Of a stretch of DNA of 46,750 bases, positions 12,763-36,549 are shown in pieces. This DNA comes from Bdellovibrionales bacterium (GTDB taxonomy: Archaea; Nanobdellota; Nanobdellia; Woesearchaeales; UBA583): positions 1 through 46,750 of the forward strand of contig CAXPJQ010000014.1 of NCBI GenBank assembly GCA_964217375.1. Reading direction: 5' to 3'. How positions within the stretch are numbered: the first letter of the stretch is position 1; the number at the start of each line of letters is the position of its first letter. A program made the translations under genes and the position numbers. The notes beneath the pieces are model-generated. The model was not told the DNA's origin, searched no databases, and worked only from the letters and a program-made list of their open reading frames with translations.

Positions 12763-12825
12763 ATAAAATAAAAAACTTTAATATTTAAAAAGATAATTGT
12801 GTTAACTAAAAAAAACTAAATGTGA

Positions 12826-12881
12826 AGCGACTGGCGGGAATTGAACCCGCGACCTCTGCATTACCAATGCAACGCTCTACC
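12826..12881 (-). pseudogene. 3' portion (about nt 18-72 plus discriminator) of host tRNA-Thr(GGU), ending in the attL core
   Basis: The reverse complement reads GGTAGAGC-G-TTGCA-TTGGTAA-TGCAG-AGGTC-GCGGG-TTCAATT-CCCGC-CAGTCGC-T. The sequence 5' of it (CAGCCGATTGCTGAGC) cannot pair with the 3' acceptor strand. Confidence 0.75.
12861..12881. repeat. attL core: 21-bp direct repeat ttaccaatgcaacgctctacc
   Basis: Identical 21-mer at 34996-35016. Similarity extends 7 more nt with 2 mismatches (gctcagc vs actgagc). Confidence 0.85.
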
Positions 12882-13744
12882 GCTCAGCAATCGGCTGTAA
12901 GCCTCAAGAACGGGGATTTGAGAGAAGTGAAGGGAGTTTTAGTTTATATCGTATATACGAAAAAAATTATTCTAAGTATTTAGAGTATATTGAGCAGTAC
13001 TCTCCTTGTTATAGAAAGTCTATGTTTTATGCTATTCAAAAGTTGTTTAAAGAGATAAAAACAATAAATGAACCTAAGGACATTCTTGCGACTATTAAGA
13101 AGAAACGATTAGATATACAGTATTCGATGAAATGTCTTCGGAATTGGCTTAATTTCTGTGAGCAAGAGGAGTTAATGGATGAGTTTAACCTTCATAAGTA
13201 TCGTAAGAAGTTTAAAATCCCTCAGCAACATAAACCAGATGTGTTTGTTCCGTCAAAAACTCAAGTAGATAGTTCTTTTGCTCAAGTTAGAGATTATTCT
13301 TATATGGACTATATAGTTATGAGAGTTTTGCTTGAAAGTGGTTGTAGGATTACTGAGTTGAAGTATTTTATTGAAACATTTAATCCTTCTTTGGTTACAA
13401 TTGAGAATGGTGTTGCTTGTTATCCTCTAACTTATCTTAGACATAATAAGAACTCTTACTTTATGTTTATGAGTGAGAATACTTTTAATGAATATGTTAA
13501 GCTCACAGAGGAGTTGAAGGGATACAAGATTTGTAAACTAATAACACATATTAGAAGACATAAGTTAACGCCTATGAAATATTATCGTAAGTATGCATTT
13601 ACCTTAATGATTGACTGTGAGATTGATATGGAAATTGCTAACTATATCCAAGGTCGTGTTTCAAGTAATATTGGAGTAAATCATTATCTTGCTAAGAAGC
13701 AAATTGCAATAAAAGAATACAAGAAGTTTTTGGAGGTCATTTAG
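12882..13744 (+). CDS. Int(C): C-terminal catalytic part of a partitioned SSV-type tyrosine recombinase
   Basis: The frame is open from 12845 through the att core into the track ORF 13022..13744, with no stop between 12845 and 13744. Tyrosine-recombinase-like motifs are LLESGCRITEL (box I Arg), YYRKYAFTLM (box II Arg) and GVNHYLAKK (candidate catalytic Tyr). Confidence 0.7.
12946..12960. repeat. Second copy of the atatcgtatatacga motif (contains the 12-bp perfect palindrome tcgtatatacga, 12949-12960)
   Basis: The 15-mer is identical to 34786-34800. It lies 65 nt from attL inside the Int(C) reading frame. Confidence 0.6.
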
Positions 13745-14201
13745 TTATAATCTCCCATTCTGGGATTCTATCAACTCTCCTGTTTGCTCCACTTGATGAA
13801 GGAAGAACAACTGTTTCATATCCTAATTCTTCAAAGACTCTTTTATGTTCTCCAGCTTTTTTTCCGTTTAAACAAATTAGTTTTATGTTTGGATATTGTT
13901 GTTTTAGTTTTGAAAAATCATTTAATTCCTCATCTTTGATATTACTATCAAGACTTCCCTCTCTATAGCTTTGATGAAATACATCCCACAGACCAATAAA
14001 ATGTTTCTTTAATGATTGGAGTTTAGTTTTATAATCTGTTTTAAAATCTTCATTCAATACATCTCCAAGTAATTTCCAGAAATCATTTGTTTTCTTTGCA
14101 TAGTATTCTTGTTTTTCTATTGATTCATCTCCTGGAAGAGAACCTAAGATTAATATCTTAGTTGTTTCATTTATTATTGGTTTTAATCCTTGCTTTATCA
14201 T
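13737..14201 (-). CDS. Family-6 uracil-DNA-glycosylase superfamily protein (hypoxanthine-DNA / DNA-deoxyinosine glycosylase-like)
   Basis: Family-typical pattern ILILGSLPGDES...YYAKKTNDFW...GLWDV...REGSLDSNI...LNDF...NGKKA...LPSSSGANRR. Confidence 0.7.
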   Translation of the reverse strand: MIKQGLKPIINETTKILILGSLPGDESIEKQEYYAKKTNDFWKLLGDVLNEDFKTDYKTKLQSLKKHFIGLWDVFHQSYREGSLDSNIKDEELNDFSKLKQQYPNIKLICLNGKKAGEHKRVFEELGYETVVLPSSSGANRRVDRIPEWEIITK

Positions 14202-14971
14202 TCTCTTATAACTTCTAATTGTGATTCAATATCTTCAATTAATGAATTAACATTATCAACTAATTGATTTAACATTTCAAGTGTTATTGTAATATCATTG
14301 CCATCTTTGTCTTTTCCATTCCTATGAACTAAGTCGTGTCTATTCATTACTCCTTTTATTAAAATACTCAAGTCTTCAGGGAAATTAATATCAAATACAA
14401 TTTTATATAAACTTTTTACTTTAGGAAGATTGTGATACATTAATTCGTTTAATTCCTTAGATACTTCTCCTCTCATAAAATCATATATGTCTTCAATTTC
14501 CTTTTCTTCAGTTTTAATTAATATCTGCGGGAGCGTGAACTTTATTTCGTTATTAAATGGTTTATATTTAAGTATAAACTCTTTCATAAAATCATAATCA
14601 TTTAAGACATTATATTTTAATGCATCTCCAAGGTAAGTTTCCATTATTGTTATTGTGTTTATATAAAAGAGTCTAATAAAAAAATCATTTTGTTCTAATG
14701 ATTCTAAAAGTTCAAAATTATTAACAGCTTTTTTTATCTCTTTGATTCCATTCAATGCATTAAGATAATATTCTGAAGGTATATCCTCAAAATCTGGTTC
14801 TGCCATATCTACATCTCTAAAAGTAGAATAACCACAAGCCCTACAAGAAAAAGAATGTTCGAATCCAGCAAGATAATTTGCTTGTTGTCCATCAGACATA
14901 TCTTCTAAATCTTCATAATCTTCTTCAAGTAGGCATTCTCCACAACTAGGACATATTTCTTCTTCAACCAT
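14198..14971 (-). CDS. Zinc-ribbon protein with a C-terminal HEPN-like (Rx4H) domain
   Basis: N-terminal CPSCGEC...CRACGY. C-terminal helical region with VMNRHDLVHRNG (R-x4-H). Family not identified. Confidence 0.4.
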   Translation of the reverse strand: MVEEEICPSCGECLLEEDYEDLEDMSDGQQANYLAGFEHSFSCRACGYSTFRDVDMAEPDFEDIPSEYYLNALNGIKEIKKAVNNFELLESLEQNDFFIRLFYINTITIMETYLGDALKYNVLNDYDFMKEFILKYKPFNNEIKFTLPQILIKTEEKEIEDIYDFMRGEVSKELNELMYHNLPKVKSLYKIVFDINFPEDLSILIKGVMNRHDLVHRNGKDKDGNDITITLEMLNQLVDNVNSLIEDIESQLEVIRE

Positions 14972-16703
14972 TTTTAGACATTATTCTATAAATCTTATCA
15001 TATTGCTTTTCATTTAAGATATTTTTGTTTTTTTCAACAATATCATCTAAAAATAATACTGCAATTTCCAATTCATTTAATTTAGCCAGTTCTTCATCAT
15101 CAAGATATGGTCTTTCAAAAAAGAAAAGTTTTTTTATGATTGTTTTATTATTCATATCAAGTTTTCTTTCTTTACAGTATTTTGGAAGATATTTTATTAC
15201 ATCATCAAAGTGTTTTTTTACAGTTTTTATATCTGCATAATTTGTTTTAGATTGTATTACATATATTTCATTTTCAGTTACTATTAATGAATCAATTTCT
15301 CCTTTGTCAAACTCGTGTCCCCAGTCAATGTGAATTATTTTATCCTTAATTGTTTTGATGTTTATGTATAAATGAATTAACTCATTTAGCATACTATTTG
15401 AATCTTTAAGTGAGTTTTCTAACATTACTTTTTTTACAAAATTCCTACAATGCTTTGATAAATAATTATGAAATATTTTAGGTTCTATTGAATATTCTAA
15501 ATAATTGAACTTATCTTTATGCTCTTCTAATAAAATATCCATTCGCATTTTGCCATTTGACCTATATCCATCTTTTGCACTTAAAGCGGTATCTTTAAAT
15601 AATAACCAATAAGAACCATTTGATAGGCTTGTTCCTTGATAGATATAAATTAAATAAGAATGTGCATAATCAACTTTTGAAGTATTATATTTAAACTCAA
15701 TAATTTCTGTTTTTTCGTTTCTCATTAAAGAAAAGAGAACAAGCTGAAAGAATATAGGAAATGTTTCATCATATCCATGTTTTACTGATGATTCATTAAT
15801 ATAATCAATATTTTGAAGCATTATATCTCTATTTCTTAATAATACTTTTAAATCTCTTTCTGAGGTTATTTTTTCAATATAGTTTTTATGGCTGATACTA
15901 TAGTCTACATCATATATATCTTTTCCAAATTCAAAATCTAATTCTGCAATAACATAATCTCTAATTCTACATCCTAAATGATGTATCTCTCCCCATGTTG
16001 AGGCATCCTTAAAAGATTTTAACAATTTATTATCTACTTTATTTTCAAATAAATATGCAATAGTTATAGCGAAACCTTTAATATAATTTGAAACATTATT
16101 TTTTACTTCCTCTGTATAAAATGAGTATTTTTCATAGTCTTCAAAAGGCAACAGATTATAAAAATAATCTTTTGGTCCGGAGTATTCAAATTTATCAGTT
16201 TTCAAATCATAATCTCCATCTAAATAAGGTTTGCTATTTGCAATTAGAAATAAAAAAACATTTTCTTTTTTTACACCTTTATTTTTTTTGTATTTAGTGT
16301 TATCAAAATAATATTTTTGTATCTCCTTTATTTTTTTAAGAAAGTTGCTAATTATATTATCTAAATCAGATTTAGATTTATTTAACCTTTTATCTTCTAT
16401 TTTTTTTCTAAACCCTTCTAATCCTTTTATTAAATCAATATCTTTACTTTTAGTTTTAATATTTTTATCTAAATGTTTGGAAGTTAAGTTTCCACTCCAA
16501 GAAATAAGTTCGTCTAAGTCATCAGAGATTAAACACTCCATAGAATGAATTAAATTATTTATTGTTAATTCTATAAGCATATAATAACCTTTTTCATATT
16601 CGCCTTCATTAATATTATTTTGTTTGAGATAATCTTTAAACTTTTTATTGATAATTGAGTTTAAGAAAAAACACTCACACTCGAGATTATCTAACCAGCT
16701 CAT
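14964..16703 (-). CDS. Large hypothetical protein with a C-terminal Mrr/NERD-like PD-(D/E/Q)xK nuclease-type motif
   Basis: C-terminal GEIDSLIVTENEIYVIQSKT (D...QxK, as in the Mrr catalytic domain). The N-terminal ~450 aa has no recognisable motif. Confidence 0.4.
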   Translation of the reverse strand: MSWLDNLECECFFLNSIINKKFKDYLKQNNINEGEYEKGYYMLIELTINNLIHSMECLISDDLDELISWSGNLTSKHLDKNIKTKSKDIDLIKGLEGFRKKIEDKRLNKSKSDLDNIISNFLKKIKEIQKYYFDNTKYKKNKGVKKENVFLFLIANSKPYLDGDYDLKTDKFEYSGPKDYFYNLLPFEDYEKYSFYTEEVKNNVSNYIKGFAITIAYLFENKVDNKLLKSFKDASTWGEIHHLGCRIRDYVIAELDFEFGKDIYDVDYSISHKNYIEKITSERDLKVLLRNRDIMLQNIDYINESSVKHGYDETFPIFFQLVLFSLMRNEKTEIIEFKYNTSKVDYAHSYLIYIYQGTSLSNGSYWLLFKDTALSAKDGYRSNGKMRMDILLEEHKDKFNYLEYSIEPKIFHNYLSKHCRNFVKKVMLENSLKDSNSMLNELIHLYINIKTIKDKIIHIDWGHEFDKGEIDSLIVTENEIYVIQSKTNYADIKTVKKHFDDVIKYLPKYCKERKLDMNNKTIIKKLFFFERPYLDDEELAKLNELEIAVLFLDDIVEKNKNILNEKQYDKIYRIMSKNG

Positions 16704-17213
16704 TTATTCTACCTCAATTCTTAAGTCCCATAGTTTAGTTTTTGCATCCTTCTCATCTTCTCCTTGCTTATAATCATACCAGAATAAATATTGTATTTCA
16801 TATAGTCCTTTTTTGTTTGGATTAAACTCGTAATTGAATATTCCTTCTCCATTACCGTTGATTATTAATTCTTTATCTTCAGTTCTTTGTATTGAGTATT
16901 CTTTTATTTCTTCTCCATCTAATTTAATTGAATTAACTTTTACATTTGCGGGGATTGAACCCTCATAATTTGACTTAAAAAGTAATGATATATTCATCAT
17001 ATCTTTTTCTCTTGCTGTGTCTTGTTGAGGTGAGGAGATTAGAATGTCATTATTTAAACTACCTTTTCCCAAAGCATTTATTTTATTTGTTTGATAAACA
17101 TCAACTCCTATTGACAATAATGCAATTGCAATACTTAAAATACTAATCCAAAATGTCCAATTAATCTTTTTCTTTTCTTTTTCAACTTTTGGTTTATTCT
17201 CTGATTTGGACAT
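16704..17213 (-). CDS. N-terminally membrane-anchored beta-rich protein
   Basis: Lys-rich N-terminus, one TM segment (WTFWISILSIAIALLSIGV), then a beta-strand-like domain. Its stop abuts the start of the next gene. Confidence 0.5.
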   Translation of the reverse strand: MSKSENKPKVEKEKKKINWTFWISILSIAIALLSIGVDVYQTNKINALGKGSLNNDILISSPQQDTAREKDMMNISLLFKSNYEGSIPANVKVNSIKLDGEEIKEYSIQRTEDKELIINGNGEGIFNYEFNPNKKGLYEIQYLFWYDYKQGEDEKDAKTKLWDLRIEVE

Positions 17214-17649
17214 TTTTCACCTCCGTATCTAATAACTCGTCACCTTCATATAGATTAAAAGTAAAATTATAGTTTTCTCCACCATTATCATATAATCTGG
17301 ATTCAAATTCAATAGAATAAGTTGTTATCTGGTCTGGATATAATTGGTCAAGTTCAATTTTCTCATTTAATCTTACATATCTATTATATGTTCTCCATTT
17401 ATTATCATCATAAACAATTTCTAATTCTGGTTTGATTATTGTTTTACCATCATTTATTATTTGAAATTCAATATTAATATCTTCGTTTCTTGAGAGATTA
17501 TCTGGCATATCTATTTTTTGAAAGTAATGATCTTGTAAAAAAGGAACTTTATTGTAAAACTTAGGACTACCAATAACCATAAATAATAAAACAACCACTA
17601 AAATGATTAATATTATTTGAGCATATCCTTTCTTATTTTTTCTTACCAT
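17194..17649 (-). CDS. N-terminally membrane-anchored beta-rich protein
   Basis: One TM segment (AQIILIILVVVLLFMVI) and a beta-sandwich-like remainder. It overlaps the hsdR stop by 17 nt and the next gene by 20 nt. Confidence 0.5.
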   Translation of the reverse strand: MVRKNKKGYAQIILIILVVVLLFMVIGSPKFYNKVPFLQDHYFQKIDMPDNLSRNEDINIEFQIINDGKTIIKPELEIVYDDNKWRTYNRYVRLNEKIELDQLYPDQITTYSIEFESRLYDNGGENYNFTFNLYEGDELLDTEVKNVQIRE

Positions 17650-20600
17650 ATTTCTCTTTTTCCTCCGCTACTGCCATTGGTGTTGTTTCTGTAAAACTTG
17701 GATAAGTGCTCACAGAAGATAGTTGCTCTTGTGATTCTTCATAGATATAATTACAAGACCTTTCTGCTTGTTTCATTACTGTTTCAACAGCCATCTTCTC
17801 TAAGTCTGGAGGATAACCATATTTTCTAAGTATTCTTCTGATATATACTCTCATTTTTGCCCTTACACTTTCTTTTTTATCCCAATCAATAGTAAGACTA
17901 TCTCTAATTGTTTTAGTTAGTTCAAGAGCAATTGTTTTTAATATTTCATCTCCCATAACTTTAACCGCTGAATCATTAATCTCTAATGCTTCATAGAATG
18001 CAAGTTCATCTTCATTAAGTCCAAGTTTCTCTCCTCTTTTGTGAGCTTCTCTTACTTGCTTTGCAATCTCTATTAATTCTGCGATTACTTTTGCAGTTTC
18101 AATTGTTTTGTTTTGATATTTCATAATTGCTTCTTCAAGCATCTCTGAGAACTTTTTCTCCATCACAATATTCTTTCTTAATTTAGATTTGATTTCATCA
18201 TTTAGAAGTTTTTGAAGTAGTTCTAATGCTAAGTTCTTATATGACATAGATTTTACATCTTGCAAGAACTCATCAGATAAAATTGAAATGTCTGGTTTAT
18301 CTATCCCTGCAATTGCAAATATATCTACTACTTCTTCAGAAGTTATTGCTTTAGATATTAATTGATTTAAGTTCTCATCAATAGTTGATAGACTCTTTTC
18401 TCCAGTTTCGTGTTTATCAAATTTCAAAAGAATAGCTCTTACTCCTAACATAAACTCAATCTCTTTTGCAATGTTTAATGCTTCATCACTTGATGCACAT
18501 AATGAGTGAGCTTTCTTCAATCTAATTGTATGTCTTAGATATCTCTTCTTGCTATCTTTATCTACTCCAAGAATAAAGTTTGCAGACTGTCCTAAGAATT
18601 GTAATAACTCAGAAGATTTCTTTAATTTGAAATATTTTTTATAATCAAATCCGTGAAACATCTCTTTTAGTATTTCGTGTTCTTCAAGCATTAGAGCAAT
18701 TGCTTCAGTTGTATCAATACCAATATTTTGTCTATCTTTTTGTGTATAAATTCCAAGTGCTTTCTTTAGCATATCTCCAATTCCCAAATAATCTACAATA
18801 AGTCCTGCTGATTTATTTCTAAATACTCTATTTACTCTTGAGATTGCTTGGATTAAATTATGACCTTTCATAGGTTTATCAACATACATAGTATCAATAC
18901 AAGGAGCATCAAATCCAGTAAGCCACATATCTCTAACAATTACAATTTCTAATTCATCTTTAGGGTTCTTTAATCTCTTACCTATTTCTTCTCTTCCTTC
19001 TTTGTTTCTTATATGATCTTGCATAAATTGTGGGTCTGCAGCACTTCCACTCATAATAACTTTGATCTTTCCTTTCTTGTTATCTTCATTATGCCATTCT
19101 GGTTTTAGTTTTATGATCTCATTATATAATTCAACACAGATTTTTCTTGACATACAAACTATCATAGCTTTTCCGCCAGTATCTTCTCTTCTTCTATCGA
19201 AGTGTTTTAAGATATCTTTTGCAACAAGTTTAAGTCTTTTGTTTGAACCAACTAATGCTTCAAGCCTGGACCATTTAGATTTAAGTTTTTGTTTTGAATC
19301 TAATTCTTGTGATTCTGTTAGTTCTTCGAAGTCTTCTTCAATCTTAGGGATTTGGTCTTTTAATAAACCAATCTTTGCAAGCCTACATTCATAATAAATT
19401 GGAACTGTTGCTTTATCTTTAATTGATTGTGTCATATCATACACATCGATATAATCTCCAAAGATTGCAGGAGTATTAATATCTGTTCCTTCAATAGGTG
19501 TTCCAGTAAATCCAATAAATGATGCATTAGGTAGTGCATCTCTTATATTCTTAGCAAATCCATCAATTAAATCATATTGTGTTCTGTGGGCTTCATCAGC
19601 AATCACTACAATGTTTCTCCTATCTGATAATTGAGGATATATGTCTCCTTTTTCATCTGGCATAAACTTTTGAATTGTTGTGAATATGATTCCTCCAGAT
19701 TCTACTGATAAAAGTTCTCTTAGGTTTGTTCTTGATTTTGCTTGTTGCGGAATTTGTCTTAGCAAATCTGAGGATAGTGAAAATGTATTATATAATTGCT
19801 CATCTAAGTCATTTCTATCTGTTAAAACTACAATAGTTGGATTATCTAATTCAAGAATTATTTTCCCAGTATAAAATGTCATAGTTAGACTTTTACCAGA
19901 ACCCGTTGTATGCCATACTACTCCAATTTTCTTAGTTCCGCTTGATGAAGTTGCAAGTTTTGTTTTCTCTACTGCTTTTTGAGTTGCATAGTATTGGTGA
20001 TATGCTGCAAGTATTTTATATACATTTTCTCCATCATCTTGGAATAAGATAAAATGATGTATTATTTCAAGTAGCTTTTCTCTATCAAACATTCCTTTGA
20101 TTTGAGTTTCAAGTTGCATAAAGTCATTTGTGATACTTTCTCCATCTATTGTTTTCCAACTCATAAATCTATCAAAGTCTGCAGTAATTGTTCCAGCTCT
20201 TGCGAATGTTCCATCACTAATGATTGTAAAAGCATTATATGAGAAAATTGTAGGGATATCATTTTTGTAAGTTTGGATTTGATTGTATGCTGATTTTATG
20301 TCTGCTTTCTCGTCAGTTGCATTTTTGAACTCAATTACTACTATTGGCAGTCCATTTACAAATACAATTAAATCTGGTCTTCTATTGTTTTTCTCTACTA
20401 TTGTAAATTGATTAACAACACAGAAGTCATTGTTTTTTAAGTTCTTTTTATCAAATAACCATACTTTATCTCCTTTGATTCTATTCTTATCTTTATATTC
20501 AACATCTACACCATCAGTTATATATTTATGAAATATTTTATTATTAATAGTTAAAGAAGGAGAAGATTGTATTTTTAGTTTTTTAATAGCTTCTTTTATT

Positions 20601-20797
20601 GAGCTCACAGGGATAGAAGGATTGATTTTTTTTAGAGAGTCTTCTAATTTGTCTTCCAAGATTACATCTTTATAATCTTGTCTCATTGGATTTTCTCCAT
20701 CAAAGGCAATATCTGGACCTGCAAGGTATGAGTATCCTAACTCTTCGAACCATTCAATTGCAGCTTCTTCTACTTGACTCTCTGTGAACTTTTTCAT
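17633..20797 (-). CDS. hsdR: Type I restriction enzyme R subunit
   Basis: N-terminal nuclease motif PDLIVFVNGLPIVVIEFKN. Helicase motif I TGSGKS and DEAH box (VIADEAHRTQ). Motif VI-like LIQAISRVNR. Full length at 1054 aa. Confidence 0.9.
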   Translation of the reverse strand: MKKFTESQVEEAAIEWFEELGYSYLAGPDIAFDGENPMRQDYKDVILEDKLEDSLKKINPSIPVSSIKEAIKKLKIQSSPSLTINNKIFHKYITDGVDVEYKDKNRIKGDKVWLFDKKNLKNNDFCVVNQFTIVEKNNRRPDLIVFVNGLPIVVIEFKNATDEKADIKSAYNQIQTYKNDIPTIFSYNAFTIISDGTFARAGTITADFDRFMSWKTIDGESITNDFMQLETQIKGMFDREKLLEIIHHFILFQDDGENVYKILAAYHQYYATQKAVEKTKLATSSSGTKKIGVVWHTTGSGKSLTMTFYTGKIILELDNPTIVVLTDRNDLDEQLYNTFSLSSDLLRQIPQQAKSRTNLRELLSVESGGIIFTTIQKFMPDEKGDIYPQLSDRRNIVVIADEAHRTQYDLIDGFAKNIRDALPNASFIGFTGTPIEGTDINTPAIFGDYIDVYDMTQSIKDKATVPIYYECRLAKIGLLKDQIPKIEEDFEELTESQELDSKQKLKSKWSRLEALVGSNKRLKLVAKDILKHFDRRREDTGGKAMIVCMSRKICVELYNEIIKLKPEWHNEDNKKGKIKVIMSGSAADPQFMQDHIRNKEGREEIGKRLKNPKDELEIVIVRDMWLTGFDAPCIDTMYVDKPMKGHNLIQAISRVNRVFRNKSAGLIVDYLGIGDMLKKALGIYTQKDRQNIGIDTTEAIALMLEEHEILKEMFHGFDYKKYFKLKKSSELLQFLGQSANFILGVDKDSKKRYLRHTIRLKKAHSLCASSDEALNIAKEIEFMLGVRAILLKFDKHETGEKSLSTIDENLNQLISKAITSEEVVDIFAIAGIDKPDISILSDEFLQDVKSMSYKNLALELLQKLLNDEIKSKLRKNIVMEKKFSEMLEEAIMKYQNKTIETAKVIAELIEIAKQVREAHKRGEKLGLNEDELAFYEALEINDSAVKVMGDEILKTIALELTKTIRDSLTIDWDKKESVRAKMRVYIRRILRKYGYPPDLEKMAVETVMKQAERSCNYIYEESQEQLSSVSTYPSFTETTPMAVAEEKEKYGKKK

Positions 20798-21138
20798 TCT
20801 TTACTTAAATTAGAAACATTAGTATTTATATTTGTTTCTTCTATTGTTATTATTCTTAAATCACTTTTAATTCCAAAAGCATCATATATTTTCTTTCTAT
20901 CTAATACTAAAAAGAAATATGTTCCTATAACTAAATAAATAGCGAACTTAAGTGTTTCTGGACTTAACCATCCATTATTTTTGATAGAAACAATATAATA
21001 GATTAAGATATTGACACTTGACACAATAAGGATTATTAATAATATTAATGAAACTAACCATAATATTAGAACTTTAAATGCCATCTTCCAATTAATCTTT
21101 ACTTTAATTGGTTCCATTGCTTCTATCTTAGTTGACAT
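20794..21138 (-). CDS. Small polytopic membrane protein (114 aa from the internal ATG)
   Basis: The track ORF 20794..21234 overlaps the upstream gene by 107 nt. The ATG at 21138 (MSTKIEA...) reduces this to 11 nt. Two or three hydrophobic spans. 4-nt overlap with the hsdR start. Confidence 0.45.
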   Translation of the reverse strand: MSTKIEAMEPIKVKINWKMAFKVLILWLVSLILLIILIVSSVNILIYYIVSIKNNGWLSPETLKFAIYLVIGTYFFLVLDRKKIYDAFGIKSDLRIITIEETNINTNVSNLSKE

Positions 21139-21322
21139 TTTTTTTCCTCCACAATAAAGGTTGCCCACAGTTTGGACATTGAAACATAGAACCATTAACT
21201 GGATAATTACATCTTGGACACTTATAATATTCATTTTCTCCTTTTGCTATTTTTCCTAAAAGCCAAGCACCCAATGCAAGACCTCCCAATGTTAATAATG
21301 TTTCTTTTGTGTCTTTATCCAT
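21128..21322 (-). CDS. Small TM + zinc-ribbon protein
   Basis: TM segment LLTLGGLALGAWLLGKI followed by CPRCNYP...CPNCGQ. Confidence 0.5.
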   Translation of the reverse strand: MDKDTKETLLTLGGLALGAWLLGKIAKGENEYYKCPRCNYPVNGSMFQCPNCGQPLLWRKKNVN

Positions 21323-21325
21323 TTT

Positions 21326-22549
21326 TTATTCTGGTATGTCAAATACTAATATAGTTAAATATAATTCTTTTTCAGAATCATCTTTATGTTTAAATAAATA
21401 TCTAAACCCAGTTTCATTATCATATTTTATTTCTTTTTTGAAGTTATTATGACCTTTAGCAATATCTGGAATTTGTGATATTACTTTGGACATGTCTTTG
21501 TTTCTATTAAATAAGATTATTGCAGTTTTGCTATCTCTCCAAGAAAGATAACCCAATATTTGGTCAATTGTTTTTAACAAGTTTTCTTTCCCTTTCCAGA
21601 ACTTACATTCACAAATAAATAAGTTTTTACCTTCAGATCTTATTAAAATATCAGTCTTACCTTCATAATTGAATGTCTCTCCTGTTGCTTGACCTTCATA
21701 TTGTCCATTTAATTGAACTAAGAAATGTTGTCTTATACTTTCTTCATCCATTTTAGAGAAAGCTTTTGGACTTCTTTCCATTACATAAGTCATATTAGAA
21801 AGAATCCTTAAAATATTATCATATTCATTTAAATCAATTATTGGTTCTGGTTTTGAATTAGAAGTAACAGTTGGTTTACTAATTACAACTTTTCTTTTTA
21901 CTTCTGGAACTGTATATGTATTTGTACTATCTTCTCTTTTTTTTAATGGAAATCCTAATTCTGAAACTATATCGTGATTTTTCAACAATGTTTCTTTTCT
22001 TTTTTTTATAGTTGATTCAATTAATGAATCTATAGAAGAATTGTAACTTGAAACTTCTTGTTTTATCCACTCTAACCATTTATTGATTTCAGAATAAGTT
22101 CTATCAAATTCAGATTTTAATGCAGAAGTCTCTTTATCTAAAACTGTTATTTCAATTGTTAATTCATCATTTCTTATTTCAGCTTGTGGGGGGTTTGTAG
22201 TATAAGTTGAAGACCTATAATTAAATAAGAAATCATCTCCTTCAAATGGGATATGATATATAACTTTTAAACTTTTAACATAAAAAGGTCTACTTCTATC
22301 CATAATCATTCTTCTTGGATCTTGACTTATATCTACATCTTCTTCTTTTTTGTCAATATATATTTCTTCCTCTTTTAATTCTGGACAATTAAGTAAATAT
22401 TTGTTTAATAGGTATTGTTTGTACTCATCAACATTAATATTTAATATATAATCTTCAATTTGACTATTTATTTCTGCAGAGATTTTATTCTTCTTATCTT
22501 CCAAGAAGTCTCTCAAAATTCCACTATTAAATAATAATCTTGAACTCAT
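21326..22549 (-). CDS. Hypothetical protein with a C-terminal PD-(D/E)xK nuclease-type motif
   Basis: GKTDILIRSEGKNLFICECKFWKG (D...ExK) in the C-terminal third. The N-terminal part is coiled-coil-like with no recognised family. Confidence 0.5.
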   Translation of the reverse strand: MSSRLLFNSGILRDFLEDKKNKISAEINSQIEDYILNINVDEYKQYLLNKYLLNCPELKEEEIYIDKKEEDVDISQDPRRMIMDRSRPFYVKSLKVIYHIPFEGDDFLFNYRSSTYTTNPPQAEIRNDELTIEITVLDKETSALKSEFDRTYSEINKWLEWIKQEVSSYNSSIDSLIESTIKKRKETLLKNHDIVSELGFPLKKREDSTNTYTVPEVKRKVVISKPTVTSNSKPEPIIDLNEYDNILRILSNMTYVMERSPKAFSKMDEESIRQHFLVQLNGQYEGQATGETFNYEGKTDILIRSEGKNLFICECKFWKGKENLLKTIDQILGYLSWRDSKTAIILFNRNKDMSKVISQIPDIAKGHNNFKKEIKYDNETGFRYLFKHKDDSEKELYLTILVFDIPE

Positions 22550-22550
22550 T

Positions 22551-23777
22551 TTATTTCACCCTTATTTCTCCAGACATTAGTTTTGGTAGTAAAGAATCTC
22601 TTATTTGTTTTAGAGATTCTATTTCATCTACAATATTCAGTATTTGATTATATATTGGTTCTAATTCATTAGAAAATTGTTTTGTAATTTTATTCGATTC
22701 AAAAAACTTCATAAATCTGACAGATTTCCCTGCATGCTTAATTGTAGTACCATTCGAATATTCATTAATTGTGTTTTGAATTTGGTTTGATTTCATTAAA
22801 AAATATACCAAAGATTGTTTATAATTTGATTCATTAAGAGGAATTATTTTTTTTATTCCTGTTGAAAAAATTCCTTCAAAACCTACTTTTACAATTCCTA
22901 TTGTCCCATCAAATGATACAATTACATCATTTTTTTCACAAGTTTTATCTGTTTCTATGTCAGTATATAATTCTTCATTTCTCATTCCAGTTAGATTTCC
23001 TACTCTAATAAATATTTTTCCAATTTTCTCAAAATTATAATTATTTCTTCCAGGTTCAATTCCTGTAACAAAATCTAATTCTGTGTTTAAATCTACAACA
23101 TTCCAATCTTTAGGAATTAATCCCAACTCACTTTCAACCATTTCTCCCCCAGAAGATTGATAAGGTTCTCCTTCTTGATTGGGGAAATCGAAATCTACAA
23201 ACCATCTTTTAAAAATTGCTTGTCCAAGTTCTTCTAAATTATCATTGATTTTCTTATTAATCTCTATTTTGTCATCTAACTCAGAGAGTACTTTTGCAAT
23301 TGCTTTTTGTTCTTCAATAGAAGGCAAATTTACTTCTATCAAATCAAAAGTATTTTTAGTTATAGTATCAAACACTGAACCGTGAGTAGAACCTTTAATA
23401 TTTTTCAATTTATACTTTAGTAAATAGTAAATATAATCATTAATACTAACATTATTTATTTCTCTTAAACCATAACAAGATTGGTTAAAAGCCATTTCCT
23501 TTCCTAATTGTGCAATTGCTCCAACTGTACCTCTTGCAGAAATAATTATATCTCCTTTATTCAGTAACTTGGTAGAACTTTCTTTTAATCCTTTTTCTGT
23601 TATTGTTTTTTCAGTTGTGTATACTTTTCGATAATCATCATTAAAATCAACTACAGATAACCAATTAATATCTCCATTCCAATACTCTTTTACGCTTGTT
23701 TTAGGAGTTCCACCCCCAATAATTTGGACTATTTCTGAAAAATGTTTTCTTGACCAATTATTATTCTTAATTTCCAT
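22551..23777 (-). CDS. hsdS: Type I restriction-modification specificity subunit
   Basis: Two target-recognition-domain halves, each followed by a helical spacer (SIEEQKAIAKVLSELDDKIE ; ESLKQIRDSLLPKLMSGEIRV). N-terminal IGGGTPKT motif. Confidence 0.85.
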   Translation of the reverse strand: MEIKNNNWSRKHFSEIVQIIGGGTPKTSVKEYWNGDINWLSVVDFNDDYRKVYTTEKTITEKGLKESSTKLLNKGDIIISARGTVGAIAQLGKEMAFNQSCYGLREINNVSINDYIYYLLKYKLKNIKGSTHGSVFDTITKNTFDLIEVNLPSIEEQKAIAKVLSELDDKIEINKKINDNLEELGQAIFKRWFVDFDFPNQEGEPYQSSGGEMVESELGLIPKDWNVVDLNTELDFVTGIEPGRNNYNFEKIGKIFIRVGNLTGMRNEELYTDIETDKTCEKNDVIVSFDGTIGIVKVGFEGIFSTGIKKIIPLNESNYKQSLVYFLMKSNQIQNTINEYSNGTTIKHAGKSVRFMKFFESNKITKQFSNELEPIYNQILNIVDEIESLKQIRDSLLPKLMSGEIRVK

Positions 23778-24798
23778 TTTCTACCTCCTCAATTTCATCA
23801 ATATTACTTGTGATTATTTCTTTAGCAAATTCTTCAAATAATATTCTAATTTCATAACATTTATTATTATATTTTAATCTCGTGTATAATACCTTATAAC
23901 CTGCATTTAAATCCTCTCCCTCAAAATAAAGATAGTTATTGTTATTAAACTCTTCAATTCCATTTCCCCAATCAATTATTTCAACATCCGTGTCACTTAT
24001 TTTCTCATTCAAAAAACTACCTAATAAATTACTAATTTCTTTTTTATAGTATTGGTCTCTCATATATTTTACAATTTCAGGGTATTTTTCAAATAAATGG
24101 TAATAACTATTCAGTTTTTTAAACAAATCTTCTATAGTATAAAATATAGTTAGATTCTTTTCTTTTTTTTCTTCAAATTCTGTTTCCAATTCAGAAGTAA
24201 AATCACTATCGTTTTCTGTTAATAAATAAAAATAATCAAACTCTTCTTGTATTTCTGATTGTATGAAGGTTTCCCAAATCAAACAATCTTTAAAACCTTT
24301 ATCAGAGCCAGTTGAAGAAATACTAAAGGGTTTTCTTCCTTCAAACACTTTTACATACAATTTTTTTAATACTTCTTCTGATTTTGAAAAATCTAAGTCT
24401 AAGACTTTAATGTAATTTTTACTTTTAATAAAATCAATTACTTTTTTAGAAATGTAATCTTCATATTTAAATGAGTCGTCTGGAATCTTTACCGAAGAGA
24501 AATCACATACTTCCATATTTTTAAATAAATCTATTTTAGGAACAAATGTATCAAATGCATTTTTAAAATTAGTTTTTTTAGATTTAAAGAACTCATCTAA
24601 TGAGACTTGTGTGATCCCTATTGAAATCATATCTTGGAGTTCATTCTCTTCAATGTATTTAATTAAACTATAAAAATTGCCTTTAAAGTTTATTTCTGAA
24701 TAGTCTTTTTCCCAACTTTGATTAACTCTAATAATATTTGTATCTATCAATATAAATGATTTGCCTGTTTGTATTGGAGTTTGAATTATTTGTTCCAT
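23767..24798 (-). CDS. PIN-like (DUF4935-type) putative nuclease inserted between hsdM and hsdS
   Basis: Acidic residues in PIN order: FILIDTNI, QVSLDEF, DKGFKDCLIWE, LLTENDSDF. A C-terminal ~130 aa is of unknown function. Confidence 0.5.
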   Translation of the reverse strand: MEQIIQTPIQTGKSFILIDTNIIRVNQSWEKDYSEINFKGNFYSLIKYIEENELQDMISIGITQVSLDEFFKSKKTNFKNAFDTFVPKIDLFKNMEVCDFSSVKIPDDSFKYEDYISKKVIDFIKSKNYIKVLDLDFSKSEEVLKKLYVKVFEGRKPFSISSTGSDKGFKDCLIWETFIQSEIQEEFDYFYLLTENDSDFTSELETEFEEKKEKNLTIFYTIEDLFKKLNSYYHLFEKYPEIVKYMRDQYYKKEISNLLGSFLNEKISDTDVEIIDWGNGIEEFNNNNYLYFEGEDLNAGYKVLYTRLKYNNKCYEIRILFEEFAKEIITSNIDEIEEVENGN

Positions 24799-24804
24799 TT
24801 TACA

Positions 24805-26322
24805 TCAAAACTCATAGCCCAACCCTCCTAAGTTTTTACGAATATCTTCTTCAAGTTCTCTGGATTTTGCAAATTGTTCTGCAAGTTCAGAAGTTAGTCT
24901 ATTCATTTTGTCTTCAAATGGTTCTTCATCTTCTTCAATATCAGCAACTCCTACATATCTTCCAGGAGTTAAGATGTGTTCGTGTTTTCTAATCTCTTCA
25001 AGCGTTGCACTTTTGCAGAATCCTTTTTCATCTTCATATGTTCCTTCTTTTGTTCCTCTCCAAATATGATAAGTATCTGAAATCTTTGCAATATCTTCTG
25101 GAGTTAGTTCTCTATGTTTTCTATCTACTAATTCTCCCATATGCCGAGCATCAATAAATAAAACTTCTCCATTTCTTTTTCTATCACGAGCAACAAACCA
25201 TAAACAAACAGGGATTCCAGTACTATAAAATAACTTATCTGGAAGTGCTACAATACAGTCTACTTTGTCATCCTCAACAATTTGTTTTCTAATCTCACCT
25301 TCATTAGAAGTATTAGAACTCATTGAACCATTTGCTAAAACAAAACCAGCCACTCCTTTAGGTGATAAGTGATGAATAAAATGTTGTACCCAAGCAAAGT
25401 TTGCATTGCCCACAGGAGGGATACCATATTTCCATCTTACATCTTCTTTTATTCTTTCTCCACCCCAATCTGAAATATTAAACGGAGGATTTGCAATGAT
25501 GAAATCTGCCTTTAAATCTTTATGAACATCATTGTGGAAGGTATCAGCGTGATGTGGTCCAATATTTCCCCTAATTCCTCTAATTGCAAGATTCATTACA
25601 CATAACCTCCAAGTAGTTGGATTACTTTCTTGTCCATAAATTGAAAGGTCATCTAATTTTCCACCGTGTGCTTCTACAAACTTCTCTGATTGTACAAACA
25701 TACCACCACTACCACACGCAGGGTCGTAGATTCTTCCTTTATATGGTTCAAGCATTTCAACTAATAACTCTACAATAGATTTAGGTGTATAGAATTCTCC
25801 ACCACCTTTTCCTTCAGCAGAAGCAAACCTTCCCAAGAAATACTCATAAACTCTACCCAGTAGGTCCTTTCCTCTATTTTCAGAGTCTCCAAGCATAATA
25901 GAACTGATTAAATCAATAATTTGCCCAAGTCTTTGTTTATCAAGAGCAGGTTTAGAATAATCTTTTGGCAATACTCCTTTAAGTGATGGATTTTCTCTCT
26001 CAATTACAACCATAGCTTCATCTAAGATTTGACCAATAGTTGGTAGTTTAGCACTTTTTTGAATATAACTCCATCTTGCAGAAGGTGGAACCCAGAAACC
26101 GTTCTTTGCAATATACTCATCCTTCTCTTCTGGATCTGCATATTCTTCTTTTTGTAATTCTTCATAGATTTCTTCAAAACTATCTGAAATGTATTTTAAA
26201 AATAAAAGACCTAAAATAACATGCTTATATTCTGCAGGGTCCATGTTATTTCTCATCATATCAGCTGCTTTCCACAACTTTTCTTCAAATCCTATATTGG
26301 CTCCATTACCATTACTTTTCAT
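24805..26322 (-). CDS. hsdM: Type I restriction-modification N6-adenine DNA methyltransferase subunit
   Basis: HsdM N-domain ([36 protein letters not shown]), SAM motif [10 protein letters not shown] and catalytic motif IV IANPPFN. Confidence 0.9.
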
Positions 26323-28260: not shown

Positions 28261-30867
28261 TTACTCTAATAGTTTATATTCTCCTTTTCTTGGTTCAAAT
28301 ATTACTCCTTCATTTTTTAAATCATATAAGGTTTCATTTATATTCTCACAGTAGTTAGGGATAAGATCTTTTATATCTTCTATTTTTAATAACTTTTTAT
28401 TATTAAATAAATCTATTAACATCTCTTTTGTAGATAGTGTAGTATTAGTAGAGTTAGTAGTGTTAGTATTATTAGTAGATAGAGTAGATATATTTTTTTC
28501 TTGGTTATTACCTTCATTATTTTTTGTTATTTTATTACTCCTACTTACCTCTTTTACTTCTCCTTCCTCTACATCCTCTACTGTGAGATATTTATCAAAT
28601 TCTTTTTTCTGAATTATTTTTATCAATTCTTCTTTAGTAAATGTATAATATGTATATCCTCCAGATCTTTTTTTCTTAAAAATTTGACTATGATTTGTAA
28701 ATAATCTTTTTCCCAAATGTACATTAAAAGCAGCTCTATCAGTATGATATTCTAAATAATCACTATTATTTATAGCATATGAAGTTATCTCTTTAACTCC
28801 TAAAGTACATTTATTTGAACTACTATTTTTAGATAATTCATATATTGATTTTAATGCAATAAAGTCCCAATTATCTTCTATGTTAGATTCTTTCTGCTTG
28901 TTTACATTATCCTTTAGAAAATCATTAATCTCTTCAAAGACATCTTCTCCAATGATTTTTGCAATAGTTAGAATTGATTCTACATTTTCTAAGTCTCTAT
29001 TATTAAAATCTTTAAAATAACTTTCATCATAAGTTTTCTCTATTAATTTCCAATTATCTAAAGTCCAAATATGTAAATCATCAACTATGTCTTGCCAGAT
29101 TTTATCAGTCTCTTTTATTTTCTTTCTAGATATCTTAGGATTATTTGTTTTAATCATATTAATCTTAATACATCTTGATTCAGTAACTTCTGGCAATCCA
29201 ATAATATTATTGATTACAACTGGTGAATATCCATTATAACTATTTACTCTATGATTTTTCCCATCTGCTTTGTAACTTTTACTACCTTTTTTATAGAAAA
29301 CTTCAATAAATTGTCTTCCTGCAATTTTTTTATCTTCTGATAGGTTATCATAATTGTCAATTACTAAAGTACCACAAGTGCTTTCAACTACTCGCTCCAT
29401 ACTTGCGGGAGTAATATCTCCATGTATAGCATTATATGTTAATAAAGAATAAATCTTTGCTTGTGTAGATTTTCCAGACCCATGTTCAGCTTGAAAATAC
29501 ATTCTTCCCTTTGCATTAAATATAGGACAGGAATAATTTGAGATTATATCTGCTGCAATGATTGAATGAATTCTAGGGTCTTCGTGATATACATATAACT
29601 TATTTAATCTTTTTATTTCTTCAAAAAGTTCTCTTATATTTATTGGTTCATAATCTTCATCTAAATAATTTTGAATACTTTGATTCGACCATGGATTACT
29701 AATAACTGCTATGTCAAATTTGTTTCTATATGATAGTTTAAACTTATCTCTAATCTCATCATTTTCCTTTGACCATACAGTGTGTATGTTTCTATCTGAT
29801 GTAATTAAAATATCTATAAGTTCATCAGAACTTTCTTTTTGCACTGAGTTGCCAAAATAAAAAACATCATTATGAATTCCAGTTCCAATTCTATCAATTT
29901 TGTTTTTCTCATTAGATAATAAATCTTTAATCTTAGCTTTACCTTTATTATTCTCTTTTTTTAATGATTTAATGTGATTATTATAATTCTTTAAGGCTTT
30001 TTTATATGTGCCTTTCTTGTAGTTCATAGTTGCAGATTTCCATTTTCCAATCTTACAAGAACTCATAATCTCATCAATCAAATCAAAGTCAATAAAACCC
30101 TTCATTAATAGTTTATCTACTAAAGATAATTCTACTTCACTTCTATTTCCTTTTTCAATAGTTGTATTGTAAAGAGTTCTTAATGATTTATTTTTATTGA
30201 TAGTCTCTTCCCAAGAAGATTCTTTTTTTACTTCTTTTTGACTTATAACTTTTAGAACATTTTTATTATTTAATTTGATATTTTCTTTAGTTAGTTCTTT
30301 AAAATATAAAGTTTTAAGTTGAAACTTGTCTTTCTTGTAATGAAATGATTCGGGAATTCTAAATATCCTTGCAAGATCATTAACTCCTTTGTCAACAGTA
30401 TTTGAAATATTATTATATAAAAAGTAAATAAAATCTTTAACAGTTTGTTGATTTTCAACTTTCCATTCAATATCTATTAAAATATGATACCCATTCCCAC
30501 TTTCTGCAATATATGAATATAATATATTATTTTCATCTAAAAAATGTTTTACTTTCTCAAAGTCTTCTTTTTTTGCATTATCTAAATCAATAAAAATAAA
30601 ATTGATTCTATCAATAAATCCATTTCCTCTTTTTCTTTTATTTAATGGGTTGAAATTGATAAAAACTCCCCAACCTTCTTTGTTTTTTGTTTTTATATTA
30701 GAGATTAAACTTTCAACATTTCCATCATTAGAAAAATATGAAATTGGAAGATTTTTGTTTAAATCTTTATTCTTATCATTAAAAGATATAACTTCAAAAA
30801 AAGATTTTTTAGTATTTCTTTTGTTAATAATATAATCTAAAACTTCTTTCATGTTATTCTCCTCCAT
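28261..30867 (-). CDS. Replication protein: archaeo-eukaryotic PrimPol domain + SF3/D5-like P-loop helicase + C-terminal wHTH (pRN1 ORF904-like architecture)
   Basis: PrimPol motifs FIFIDLD (DxD) and ESGNGYHILI (sGxGxH). Walker A AEHGSGKST and Walker B-like TLVIDNYD. C-terminal wHTH-like LYDLKNEGVIFEPRKGEYKL. Confidence 0.7.
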   Translation of the reverse strand: MEENNMKEVLDYIINKRNTKKSFFEVISFNDKNKDLNKNLPISYFSNDGNVESLISNIKTKNKEGWGVFINFNPLNKRKRGNGFIDRINFIFIDLDNAKKEDFEKVKHFLDENNILYSYIAESGNGYHILIDIEWKVENQQTVKDFIYFLYNNISNTVDKGVNDLARIFRIPESFHYKKDKFQLKTLYFKELTKENIKLNNKNVLKVISQKEVKKESSWEETINKNKSLRTLYNTTIEKGNRSEVELSLVDKLLMKGFIDFDLIDEIMSSCKIGKWKSATMNYKKGTYKKALKNYNNHIKSLKKENNKGKAKIKDLLSNEKNKIDRIGTGIHNDVFYFGNSVQKESSDELIDILITSDRNIHTVWSKENDEIRDKFKLSYRNKFDIAVISNPWSNQSIQNYLDEDYEPINIRELFEEIKRLNKLYVYHEDPRIHSIIAADIISNYSCPIFNAKGRMYFQAEHGSGKSTQAKIYSLLTYNAIHGDITPASMERVVESTCGTLVIDNYDNLSEDKKIAGRQFIEVFYKKGSKSYKADGKNHRVNSYNGYSPVVINNIIGLPEVTESRCIKINMIKTNNPKISRKKIKETDKIWQDIVDDLHIWTLDNWKLIEKTYDESYFKDFNNRDLENVESILTIAKIIGEDVFEEINDFLKDNVNKQKESNIEDNWDFIALKSIYELSKNSSSNKCTLGVKEITSYAINNSDYLEYHTDRAAFNVHLGKRLFTNHSQIFKKKRSGGYTYYTFTKEELIKIIQKKEFDKYLTVEDVEEGEVKEVSRSNKITKNNEGNNQEKNISTLSTNNTNTTNSTNTTLSTKEMLIDLFNNKKLLKIEDIKDLIPNYCENINETLYDLKNEGVIFEPRKGEYKLLE

Positions 30868-32556: not shown

Positions 32557-32628
32557 AGCTATCGGCGGGAGTTGAACCCGCGACCTCTTGCCTACCAAGC
32601 AAGCGTTCTACCACTGAACTACGACAGC
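32557..32628 (-). tRNA. tRNA-Thr (anticodon GGT), intact, element-borne, no encoded CCA
   Basis: Manual cloverleaf: GCTGTCG-TA-GTTC-AGTGGTA-GAAC-G-CTTGC-TTGGTAG-GCAAG-AGGTC-GCGGG-TTCAACT-CCCGC-CGATAGC-T. All stems pair, with one G-U in the acceptor. Confidence 0.85.
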
Positions 32629-32674
32629 AATAAGGATTATAATAATAAAACTCTCAATTGATTTTAAAAGTTTT

Positions 32675-34785: not shown

Positions 34786-34803
34786 ATATCGTATATACGA
34801 TAT
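34786..34803. promoter_or_regulatory. Perfect 18-bp palindrome atatcgtatatacgatat, 8 nt upstream of the Int(N) ATG
   Basis: Read directly. The sequence is self-complementary, and its 15-nt core recurs at 12946-12960. Confidence 0.55.
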
Positions 34804-34811: not shown

Positions 34812-35021
34812 ATGGGACGAATTAAGAAAAATCGAGTAGTTGTGGCAATCAAGTTAGATACAGAATTAAAAAATCTCTTAGATGCCAGAAAAGTGGAGAA
34901 GAGCTCCTTTATTAATGAAATACTGTGGAAACACTTCGCATTAGAGAGGAATATTCCCCAATCTCAAAACTCCTATCTCAGCTCTCCCGAAAGCCTTACC
35001 AATGCAACGCTCTACCACTGA
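34812..35021 (+). CDS. Int(N): N-terminal fragment of the partitioned integrase; stands alone as a 69-aa RHH-like protein
   Basis: VVVAIKLDTELKNLLDARKVEKSSFINEILWKHF resembles a ribbon-helix-helix fold. The ORF reads through the attR core (LTNATLY) and stops 5 nt beyond it, in host tRNA sequence. Confidence 0.65.
   Translation: MGRIKKNRVVVAIKLDTELKNLLDARKVEKSSFINEILWKHFALERNIPQSQNSYLSSPESLTNATLYH
34996..35016. repeat. attR core: 21-bp direct repeat ttaccaatgcaacgctctacc
   Basis: Identical to 12861-12881. Confidence 0.85.
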
Positions 35022-35032
35022 GCCACAGTCGC
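34996..35032 (-). pseudogene. 5' portion (nt 1-38) of host tRNA-Thr(GGU)
   Basis: The reverse complement reads GCGACTG-TG-GCTC-AGTGGTA-GAGC-G-TTGCA-TTGGTAA, then diverges into element sequence. Its acceptor 5' strand is complementary to CAGTCGC at 12827-12833. Confidence 0.75.
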
Positions 35033-35109
35033 TAAATAAAAAAAAAATGAATTACTGAGGGAGTAATCCAAGTTAAAAAAAAAGAAAAAAAATGATATTA
35101 AAAAACTTT

Positions 35110-36549
35110 CTAATTGAAAGTCATTTCTGCATAATTATTAAATTCTTGAAAAATAGGAACTTTACTTAAATTTTTAATATCAAATTCCCAAGGTTCAATA
35201 TATCTTAAACCTAATTCTTGAGCCTGAGAGAATACTCCTTCATATCCATTTTCAAATCTGTGACTCTCGTCAGATCTCCCAATAATTTGTCCATATTTAT
35301 CTCCTGGAAATTCTTTAAGTACATCAAGTAACTCAGTTTGATATGAATTTCCCCCTGAAATCCACCAAATTGCAGCACCTACTCTTCCATTTAAATACTC
35401 ATCTTCTAATAAATTATACATAGTATATTCTGCAATATCACTACTACCTAAAAGGTCATGATATTCAACCGCTAAAGCTTTATTAGGAAAAGCATCTGCA
35501 AATGCATAAGTTGTATTTTTAACTGATTCATACCAAGCTTCCTGATTTAAACCTTCAGAGATTAAATAATCTGTACTTACTCCATTAAAATGACCTTCAA
35601 TACCATTACTTGTCATTTGAGAGATATAAACTAAGACTAAATTTTCATTATCTGCAAACTCTTTTCCTAATTCTTGAGCTAATAAATATAATCTAGATCT
35701 AACCTTGTCATTCCACCATTTAGGAACAATAGTTGGATTACCTCTAAATGAAATCTCTAAATTATCAACTTCCAAATCATCAATTAACCATTGAGGAGAA
35801 CTTTTTCCTGTTGAAATAGCAAGTGACCAATTTAAATTCCTAGATTCAACTTCTTCAACTTGAGTAATAATATATGAAAAATTATAAACTCCTGGACTTG
35901 GTTCAATATCTTTCCAAGAACCCCTAATTAATACTCCATTAAATTCAGGATTTTCATAAATTGCACTTGACTTTGCACCTGAAGATGAAAAAACTCCAGT
36001 TGGTTTGTAAATTGTTTGAGTAGTAGTTGAATTTTGAGAATCAGTTCCATCATCAGAGCCATCGTCAGAACTATCATCAGAGCTATCATCAGAACCATCA
36101 TCAGAGCCATCGTCAGAACTATCATCAGAACCATCATCAGAGCCATCGTCAGAACTATCATCAGAACTATCATCAGAACTATCATCAGAACTATCGTCAG
36201 AACTATCATCAGAGCTATCATCAGAACCATCATCAGAGCCATCGTCAGAGCCATCGTCAGAACTATCATCAGAGCTATCATCAGAACCATCGTCAGAACT
36301 ATCATCAGAACCATCGTCAGAACTATCATCAGTTTCATCGTCAGTTCCATCATCACCTAATTCATCTCCAAATGAATCATTAAAACTATTATTAGTTCTA
36401 TCATCAGGTTTAGTTACTGAGGCATTTTTTAAATCATCGTAAAAATCATCCAAATAGGAATAATTTTTACTATAATTTTCTTCATTTACAATTGAATTTG
36501 AACAAGAAGTAATGAACAAAATCAATAAAATTAGTAAAATATTTTTCAT
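35110..36549 (-). CDS. Lipoprotein with a long (D-D-S-S/G)n acidic linker and a C-terminal TIM-barrel glycoside-hydrolase-like domain
   Basis: Lipobox ITSC. About 100 aa of SDD/GSDD repeats. The motif [20 protein letters not shown] resembles GH42/GH5-type barrels. Confidence 0.5.
36043..36356. repeat. Coding tandem repeat, 12-nt unit (atcatcaga[ac][cg][ct]-like), encoding (DDS[SG])n on the minus strand
   Basis: Read directly. It creates long spurious ORFs in other frames. Confidence 0.85.

Follow-up and report, generated by a model that had tools for sequence, protein, structure and literature searches.

Archaeal elements that integrate into tRNA genes have been described as leaving these genes functional. 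According to the passages on target sites in two accounts (PMC7253208, PMC8371274), SSV1 and the pT26-2 family copy the 3' end of the tRNA and in this way restore the gene, and the review of archaeal integrases states there that all integration events restore the tRNA gene. The catalytic signature of the SSV type is given as R...KxxR...Y in the corresponding section (PMC8371274). Targeting of the 5' side is also known from such passages, for the pTN3-like integrases, one Archaeoglobales element and one Caldiarchaeum element, with restoration stated for the pTN3 group. The attP of pTN3 is described as a perfect match of 41 bp, and the full tRNA is rebuilt and expressed from the integrase promoter, as far as the descriptions of this site go (PMC5495485, PMC8371274). 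Replacement of an archaeal tRNA by an integrating element was not found in searches of open-access literature, and a break-and-replace strategy is so far proven in bacterial viruses only.

The window analyzed here (the whole stretch of 46,750 nucleotides) belongs to a small marine archaeon with a 981-kb genome of 25.6% GC that is 82% complete. Between two att cores it contains a 22.1-kb mobile defence island with a split SSV-type integrase. From left to right, the island comprises Int(C), a type I restriction-modification operon with inserted genes, a weakly primase-like protein, GmrSD and Int(N). The operon and its interleaved genes (UDG-like, PDC-S54 and unknowns, according to Pfam and PADLOC) occupy 13737..26322 on the minus strand. 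An 868-aa probable replication protein (28261..30867, minus strand; weak primase/polymerase-family match, phrog_2478, E = 7e-5) and a GmrSD-family restriction protein (32675..34711, minus strand; domain and defence searches) follow. Neither Pfam searches of 21/21 island ORFs nor PHROGs searches of 11/21 and Int(N) identified a virion family, which argues against membership among the temperate phages, although a divergent capsid could have escaped these searches. Integrase relatives were found in records labelled Nanoarchaeota or Ca. Woesearchaeota, two records bearing a Methanosarcinales label, and none was found in viral contigs. The host flanks contain a fused kinase-phosphoesterase-RNA ligase (Pnkp-like) protein at 1855-4047 and an array of 12-bp tandem repeats at 35981-36424 within the ORF 35110-36549.

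By domain, signature and split gene the island is of the SSV type, but the target tRNA is restored at neither junction and a replacement is carried. We interpret this as break-and-replace, that is, recombination confined to the anticodon loop, no repair, and survival of the cell through the cargo tRNA, and assign this reading a probability of roughly 85%.

The interrupted tRNA gene and its junctions

A 21-bp repeat is exact at 12861-12881 (left core, anticodon loop at 12861-12867) and 34996-35016 (right core), and the genome holds just these two copies. It corresponds to standard tRNA positions 18-38, as proposed in an earlier note on this DNA, and its end coincides with the 3' boundary of the anticodon loop. 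The 3' half of the host tRNA-Thr(GGU) gene (anticodon 3' stem, T-arm, acceptor 3' strand and discriminator) lies at 12826..12860, and its 5' half (acceptor 5' strand, D-arm, anticodon 5' stem and loop) at 34996..35032, both on the minus strand. Rejoining the flanks in silico to an empty site yielded a tRNA-Thr(GGT) with an ARAGORN score of 120.9, identical in 70/72 positions to an intact, syntenic gene in G013. The G013 gene stands among homologues of the left-flank genes of the window, and in G014, G009 and G012 an intact tRNA-Thr(GGT) stands beside homologues of the right-flank genes. As these relatives carry one intact Thr(GGT) gene beside the same flanking genes, the split gene is the native one. 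The tRNA query was matched in 16 of 19 genomes of the genus, in three of the 16 through tRNA-Lys only.

Both junctions failed the default cut-off of ARAGORN. With a lowered threshold, the program reported nothing at the right junction, while the left junction scored 97.4, just under the cut-off, with a collapsed D-arm. The proposal that integration splits the gene and that neither junction rebuilds a credible tRNA was thus borne out. A working tRNA at the left junction, rebuilt in the style of pTN3 with an odd D-arm and leaving the cargo optional, would fit the near-threshold score and an Rfam match of positions 10-63 at 42.3 bits, above the family cut-off, and pTN3-like integrases do rebuild tRNAs via a 5' copy according to the passages that treat them. 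We nevertheless consider it improbable, because acceptor and D-arm are mutually exclusive at this junction. The element side had been claimed to be incapable of pairing with the acceptor strand; this holds in register (2/7 pairs), but not in a register shifted by 3 nt (6/7 pairs), which shuffled sequences attain in 9.5% of trials (p = 0.095, chance level). In the shifted register the D-arm is 3 nt short, and the shifted pairing suits some host alleles only. A promoter matrix trained on the upstream regions of 16 other tRNA genes gave -0.6 bits at the left junction (62% of random windows are as high), so that the junction has no promoter-like box. It is also antisense to Int(C), which would make the integrase promoter unusable, and an expression of the pTN3 kind was accordingly not found.

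The 5' half retains the promoter-like box of the host gene (35097..35111, minus strand; 8.1 bits, reached by 3.1% of random windows). It is antisense to Int(N), and it is plausible from this arrangement that the half would be transcribed antisense into the 69-codon Int(N) remnant. In trans-spliced split tRNA genes, the halves are flanked by a complementary trailer and leader. Separate transcription and trans-splicing of the halves, as for the split tRNAs of Nanoarchaeum, might be considered here as well, the host being labelled as Nanoarchaeota-related and both halves being intact. We regard it as very improbable. Between trailer and leader, Watson-Crick pairing extends over at most 5 bp, a length that shuffled sequences yield more often than any other (11 bp if G-U pairs are admitted), the 3' half is without promoter, and empty sites occur in the population.

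Public contigs from 4 of 15 listed runs (X2, X4, X6 and X7) were compared with the window on the left junction side, and empty sites were found in X2 and X7. All four runs are marine and from one year, and X2 and X4 stem from the same study as the possible source run, which limits the independence of the runs. In X4, a contig spans the left junction with zero differences. Run X2 contains a junction piece (depth 6.2) together with a 39-nt empty-site piece (depth 8.3). In run X7, an 823-nt contig passes from the left flank through the core into the letters of the host 5' half and leaves the integrase uncovered, showing the empty site. A loose end in run X6 equals 35024-35042. The presence of empty sites in the population indicates that the split is recent. 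A mis-assembly or chimeric joins at the 21-bp repeat would be conceivable in a metagenome-assembled genome from an element-mixed population, with contig support at the left junction only. We consider this the remotest of the alternatives in view of the X4 contig, a sister island that shares both ends, the open frame of the joined integrase, and the synteny of both flanks with the tRNA locus of relatives.

Run X6 also appears to contain, compared with 12819-12869 of the window, a second, different element in this tRNA gene, where 51 bp of the 3' half are duplicated in the classical restoring layout (unitig ends only). One tRNA gene would thus be present empty, with a restoring element and with a non-restoring element in the same kind of sample, a natural experiment.

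Integrase, attP and the position of the crossover

Int(C), the catalytic part of the integrase, extends over 12863..13744 on the plus strand. It contains a Phage_integr_3 domain (PF16795; E = 1.4e-26, 93.7 bits, cut-off 27) and the residues R162, K239-x-x-R242, R265 and Y275 (counted from 12863), in agreement with the SSV-type signature. Int(N), on the plus strand at 34812..35021, comprises 69 codons; its frame, open through the core, stops at a TGA located in the 5' half of the host gene. The attP lies inside the integrase gene, which is split on integration, and the frame across the joined attP is open (355 aa).

On the element side, an imperfect mimic of the D-arm at 12882..12897 (minus strand) doubles as integrase codons. 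The earlier note had counted 13 of 15 identical nucleotides in the D-arm. The count is correct, but 8 of the 15 fall within the exact core, which leaves 5/7 outside. The observation that the mimic extends to the 5' side also stands; its opposition to classical integrases is weakened by the pTN3-like precedent for targeting the 5' half. Compared with the tRNA's 5' half, the attP has 8 mismatches in positions 1-16 and is therefore not the faithful copy of pTN3-like elements. In the reading frame of the integrase, tRNA positions 12-14 of the host 5' half spell TGA, and those of the attP TCA. The change at position 13 removes the in-frame stop and breaks the fourth D-stem pair. Since the attP must encode integrase and a faithful 5' copy holds an in-frame stop, an exact mimic is impossible in this frame and orientation. 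The order of cause and effect behind the imperfection would then run from coding demand to mimic. We also considered the attP as a relic of a full 5' copy with one codon deleted and rejected this, as the fit was no better than chance (p = 0.095).

A 12-bp palindrome occurs at 12949..12960 and, just upstream of the integrase start, at 34789..34800. These are the only two copies in the 980-kb genome, they flank the attP, and both positions are kept in G016 and in G006, whose integrase is 45% identical. The palindromes are candidate arm-type or operator sites for the N-terminal domain of the integrase. This short domain looks ribbon-helix-helix-like by eye, with a weak match to SSV1 D-63 (E = 0.085).

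A sister island in G016 is 92-95% identical across four blocks, with a 98% identical integrase. It is inserted at an intergenic site outside any tRNA, and its ends have 10 bp in common. The insertion site nevertheless presents the same 7-nt loop between 4-bp inverted arms; in G000 (this genome), 1 of 234 copies of that 7-mer bears such arms. Contig L090 and G016:C7 represent one and the same DNA and were counted once. The att cores at other sites measure 27, 8, 14, 9, 7 and 9 bp, and all eight measured cores (7-27 bp) include the anticodon loop. We infer from this pattern that the crossover falls within the 7-nt anticodon loop, consistent with the cleavage at the loop edges reported for IntSSV1 in the part of the literature that addresses it. 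The 21-bp identity of the present cores would then exceed the recombination site proper, and the extra would reflect the partial host copy in the attP.

The attP sites of the two sisters differ (window 12868-12872 and 12882; G016:C7 near 10815) in the 5' strand of the anticodon stem and one D-loop base. The differences match tRNA alleles of different hosts, as if the attP had been refreshed from host DNA. The native-locus tRNA-Thr(GGT) of G016 (G016:C3 99495-99566) is divergent and differs in the first base of the loop, which may explain the move of the sister to a secondary site.

The cargo tRNA and its match to the target

The island carries a complete tRNA-Thr(GGU) at 32557..32628 on the minus strand (ARAGORN 121.2; Rfam 70.9 bits), 2.4 kb inside its right end. 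It is the only tRNA that ARAGORN finds in the window. Upstream of it lies a BRE-TATA-like box (32661..32675, minus strand; 11.9 bits, a score that 0.4% of random windows attain). This box, which recurs unchanged in the sister island, resembles the boxes of the other tRNA genes of the genome; the left junction has none. The earlier note had called for a count of tRNA-Thr(GGU) genes across the genome. In searches with ARAGORN and Rfam, in a scan for stem-loops and in blastn comparisons with 7 alleles, the cargo was the sole intact Thr(GGT) gene found; 19 full-length tRNA matches are present in all (Rfam). No other copy of the disrupted gene was found in the 82%-complete genome, and the gene is probably essential. 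ACU and ACC account for 6,427 of 11,327 Thr codons (57%). The cargo is identical to the replaced host gene in 53/72 positions and to the native gene of G011 in 65/72, so that it was most likely acquired from another host. In the sister island, the corresponding slot behind the shared promoter box is occupied by another allele of Thr(GGT), which contains a 41-nt intron. As the sister sits outside any tRNA, the cargo travels with the element. The intron (cargo gene at G016:C7 30114-30226) follows the anticodon and has a bulge-helix-bulge-like fold.

Under break-and-replace, a tyrosine integrase with the attP in its own gene would recombine in the 7-nt anticodon loop of the single host tRNA-Thr(GGU), splitting integrase gene and tRNA gene simultaneously. 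No gene is rebuilt, because the attP provides no usable tRNA half, and the cell would live on through the complete tRNA-Thr(GGU) of the island, presumably expressed from its own promoter. The presence of this tRNA explains why repair is unneeded. The cargo would also relieve the attP mimic of the need for exactness, and the lifted constraint may explain the drift of an attP that doubles as integrase codons.

The alternative that the cargo is incidental, or serves codon supply or counters tRNA-cutting defences, appears about as improbable as a working left junction. Loss of the host gene would then be tolerated through tRNA-Thr(UGU), which is present in the genome and might decode all four Thr codons, or through a further tRNA-Thr(GGU) copy, which could be unassembled in a genome that is 82% complete. 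The sister island, which retains its cargo without a broken tRNA, would be in line with this, and counter-defence roles of tRNAs have been raised in the discussion of phage-borne tRNAs (PMC10865867). On the other side, a PADLOC screen of 16 island proteins detected neither of the anticodon nucleases PrrC and RloC, and the cargo in related elements is matched to the target.

This match became apparent in a survey of the genus. Cognate-anticodon cargo was present at 8 of 10 split-looking tRNA sites (6 genomes, 4 anticodons): Thr(GGT) in G000 and G006 (C78/C79), Ser(GGA) at G015:C1, Ser(TGA) in G018 and G006 (C61/C65), and Ser(GCT) in G001, G016:C2 and G006 (C91/C78). No non-cognate tRNA was found within the element stretches read. 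Of two homologous elements, G006:C61 bears Ser(TGA) and C91 bears Ser(GCT), in each case the anticodon of its own target, which is difficult to reconcile with incidental cargo. In G001, a genome assembled as a single contig, the cargo is the sole intact Ser(GCT) gene. Cargo was absent at G006:C45 (9.5 kb seen) and L091 (a 1.8-kb contig reaching ~600 bp past the integrase), both partial contigs. At the 7 sites with both halves located, the joined gene scored 115-122 and every junction below 100; the 3' half of the G016:C2 site was not found. The halves in G006 and G018 are on separate contigs and were paired indirectly. At G006 C78/C79, the attP mimics the 3' half, the acceptor is broken (score 98.5), and the contig ends within the cargo. 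The genomes are kin and the 8 cases therefore not independent, so that no p-value is given.

As controls we used 13 integrase loci with an intact tRNA directly upstream. At 12 of them no orphan 5' half precedes the tRNA; at the thirteenth, in G017 (14-nt match), 45 bp of the 3' side are duplicated in the classical manner. For 2 of the 13 loci, the displaced 3' half could be located. In a FastTree phylogeny of 36 integrases (without IntpTN3), the non-restoring elements form two clades apart from each other, both with a support of 0.96, and a restoring member belongs to one of them; the tree backbone is unresolved.

Other integrase loci were less informative. Neither a tRNA nor a piece of one was detected close to the integrases at G014:C3, G006:C35, G006:C40, G013:C151 and L092. 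At G004:C110 there was no split tRNA nearby, an intact Leu(TAA) gene being 650 bp off, and the G054 locus gave a fragment match only; these seven loci were set aside as unclassified. The far end of a Phe element in G001 was not located within 58 kb. A loose, genus-wide search pattern for the Thr(GGT) loop was discarded because its matches did not exceed those of a reversed control; a lead from it, G007:C68, falls in a protein-coding stretch.

Several related arrangements were observed in passing. At G001:C1 773587-773671 and G016:C2 148556-148640, the cargo tRNA-Ser(GCT) lies within the integrase reading frame, which in G001 (412 aa) is open through the cargo, 30 bp past the core. A sister element in G015 (C22 and C96) apparently restores its tRNA classically, with the same Ser(GCT) allele; near G015:C96 4216, a displaced tRNA-Ser(GCT) 3' half has a ~48-nt insertion in the T-loop region. 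At G006:C61 74000-74199 and C91 168-367, the cognate tRNA-Ser follows ~77 nt past the orphan 5' half, with cores of 9 and 7 bp. No integrase is present in the 2.5-3 kb seen of these two elements, and a 343-aa HTH protein is nearby. In this genus, intact tRNA genes are commonly followed, 70-110 bp downstream, by short copies of tRNA 3' ends (for example G013:C148 near 2695-2716), which are possibly scars of older elements.

Taken further, break-and-replace may be a recurrent mode of integration in the genus, a view that we hold with slightly better than even confidence. It would combine integrases that require no more than the 7-nt loop, palindromic arm sites that guide them, and exchangeable tRNA cassettes, captured from other hosts and matched to the target, one of them in frame within the integrase. 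Some cassettes would be altered in the loop against self-targeting, as suggested by the last anticodon-loop base of the present cargo, which is unlike that of the host loop, and by the intron in the G016 sister. If this is true, such elements would leave behind tRNA halves that are separated but intact while a backup gene covers for them, a plausible first step towards the split tRNA genes of the phylum.

Significance and comparison with described systems

The island and its relatives break the stated rule that archaeal integration restores the tRNA gene. They also bear on annotation, since finders that rely on a restored tRNA and a displaced fragment would miss such islands, and the cargo tRNA would be taken for a host gene. 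Part of a defence island would moreover be tied to host viability: loss of the stretch with the cargo, other than by precise excision, would be expected to kill the cell.

Among archaeal systems, the pTN3 group resembles the island in that the attP similarity runs from the anticodon loop toward the D-arm, to judge from the published description of these sites. Unlike in pTN3, the copy in the island is imperfect, does not reach beyond the D-arm and runs antisense to the integrase. The model of tRNA-Thr(GGU) fragmentation in Caldiarchaeum (PMC3293823), in its portion on this gene, shares the isoacceptor, an orphan 5' fragment from an integrating element and the proposed link to split tRNAs. It differs in that a complete gene is reconstituted at the junction, the recombinase is unsplit, and there is no separate cargo tRNA.

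In its apparent mode of action, the island is closest to the tRNA-dependent lysogeny of actinobacteriophages (Fionnbharth and others; PMC10865867). That paper has no mention of archaea (0 occurrences). The sections on integration describe a tyrosine integrase, an attB in a tRNA gene, no rebuilding and a cognate tRNA carried by the phage. The island shares all of these: its attB is in a tRNA gene, no junction tRNA is functional (the left being borderline by score and defective by structure), and it carries an intact tRNA-Thr(GGT). It differs from the phages described there in its archaeal host, in the virion genes, of which none was found, in an attP located in a split integrase gene, and in its core (21 bp with a partial 5' mimic versus ~10 bp). 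As no phage genes were found and the dependence of the host is presumed, the island would work like tRNA-dependent lysogeny rather than being a strict member of that class. Integration of the tRNA-dependent kind, described for phages of actinobacteria, would with this island and its relatives reach archaea as well as islands without phage genes.
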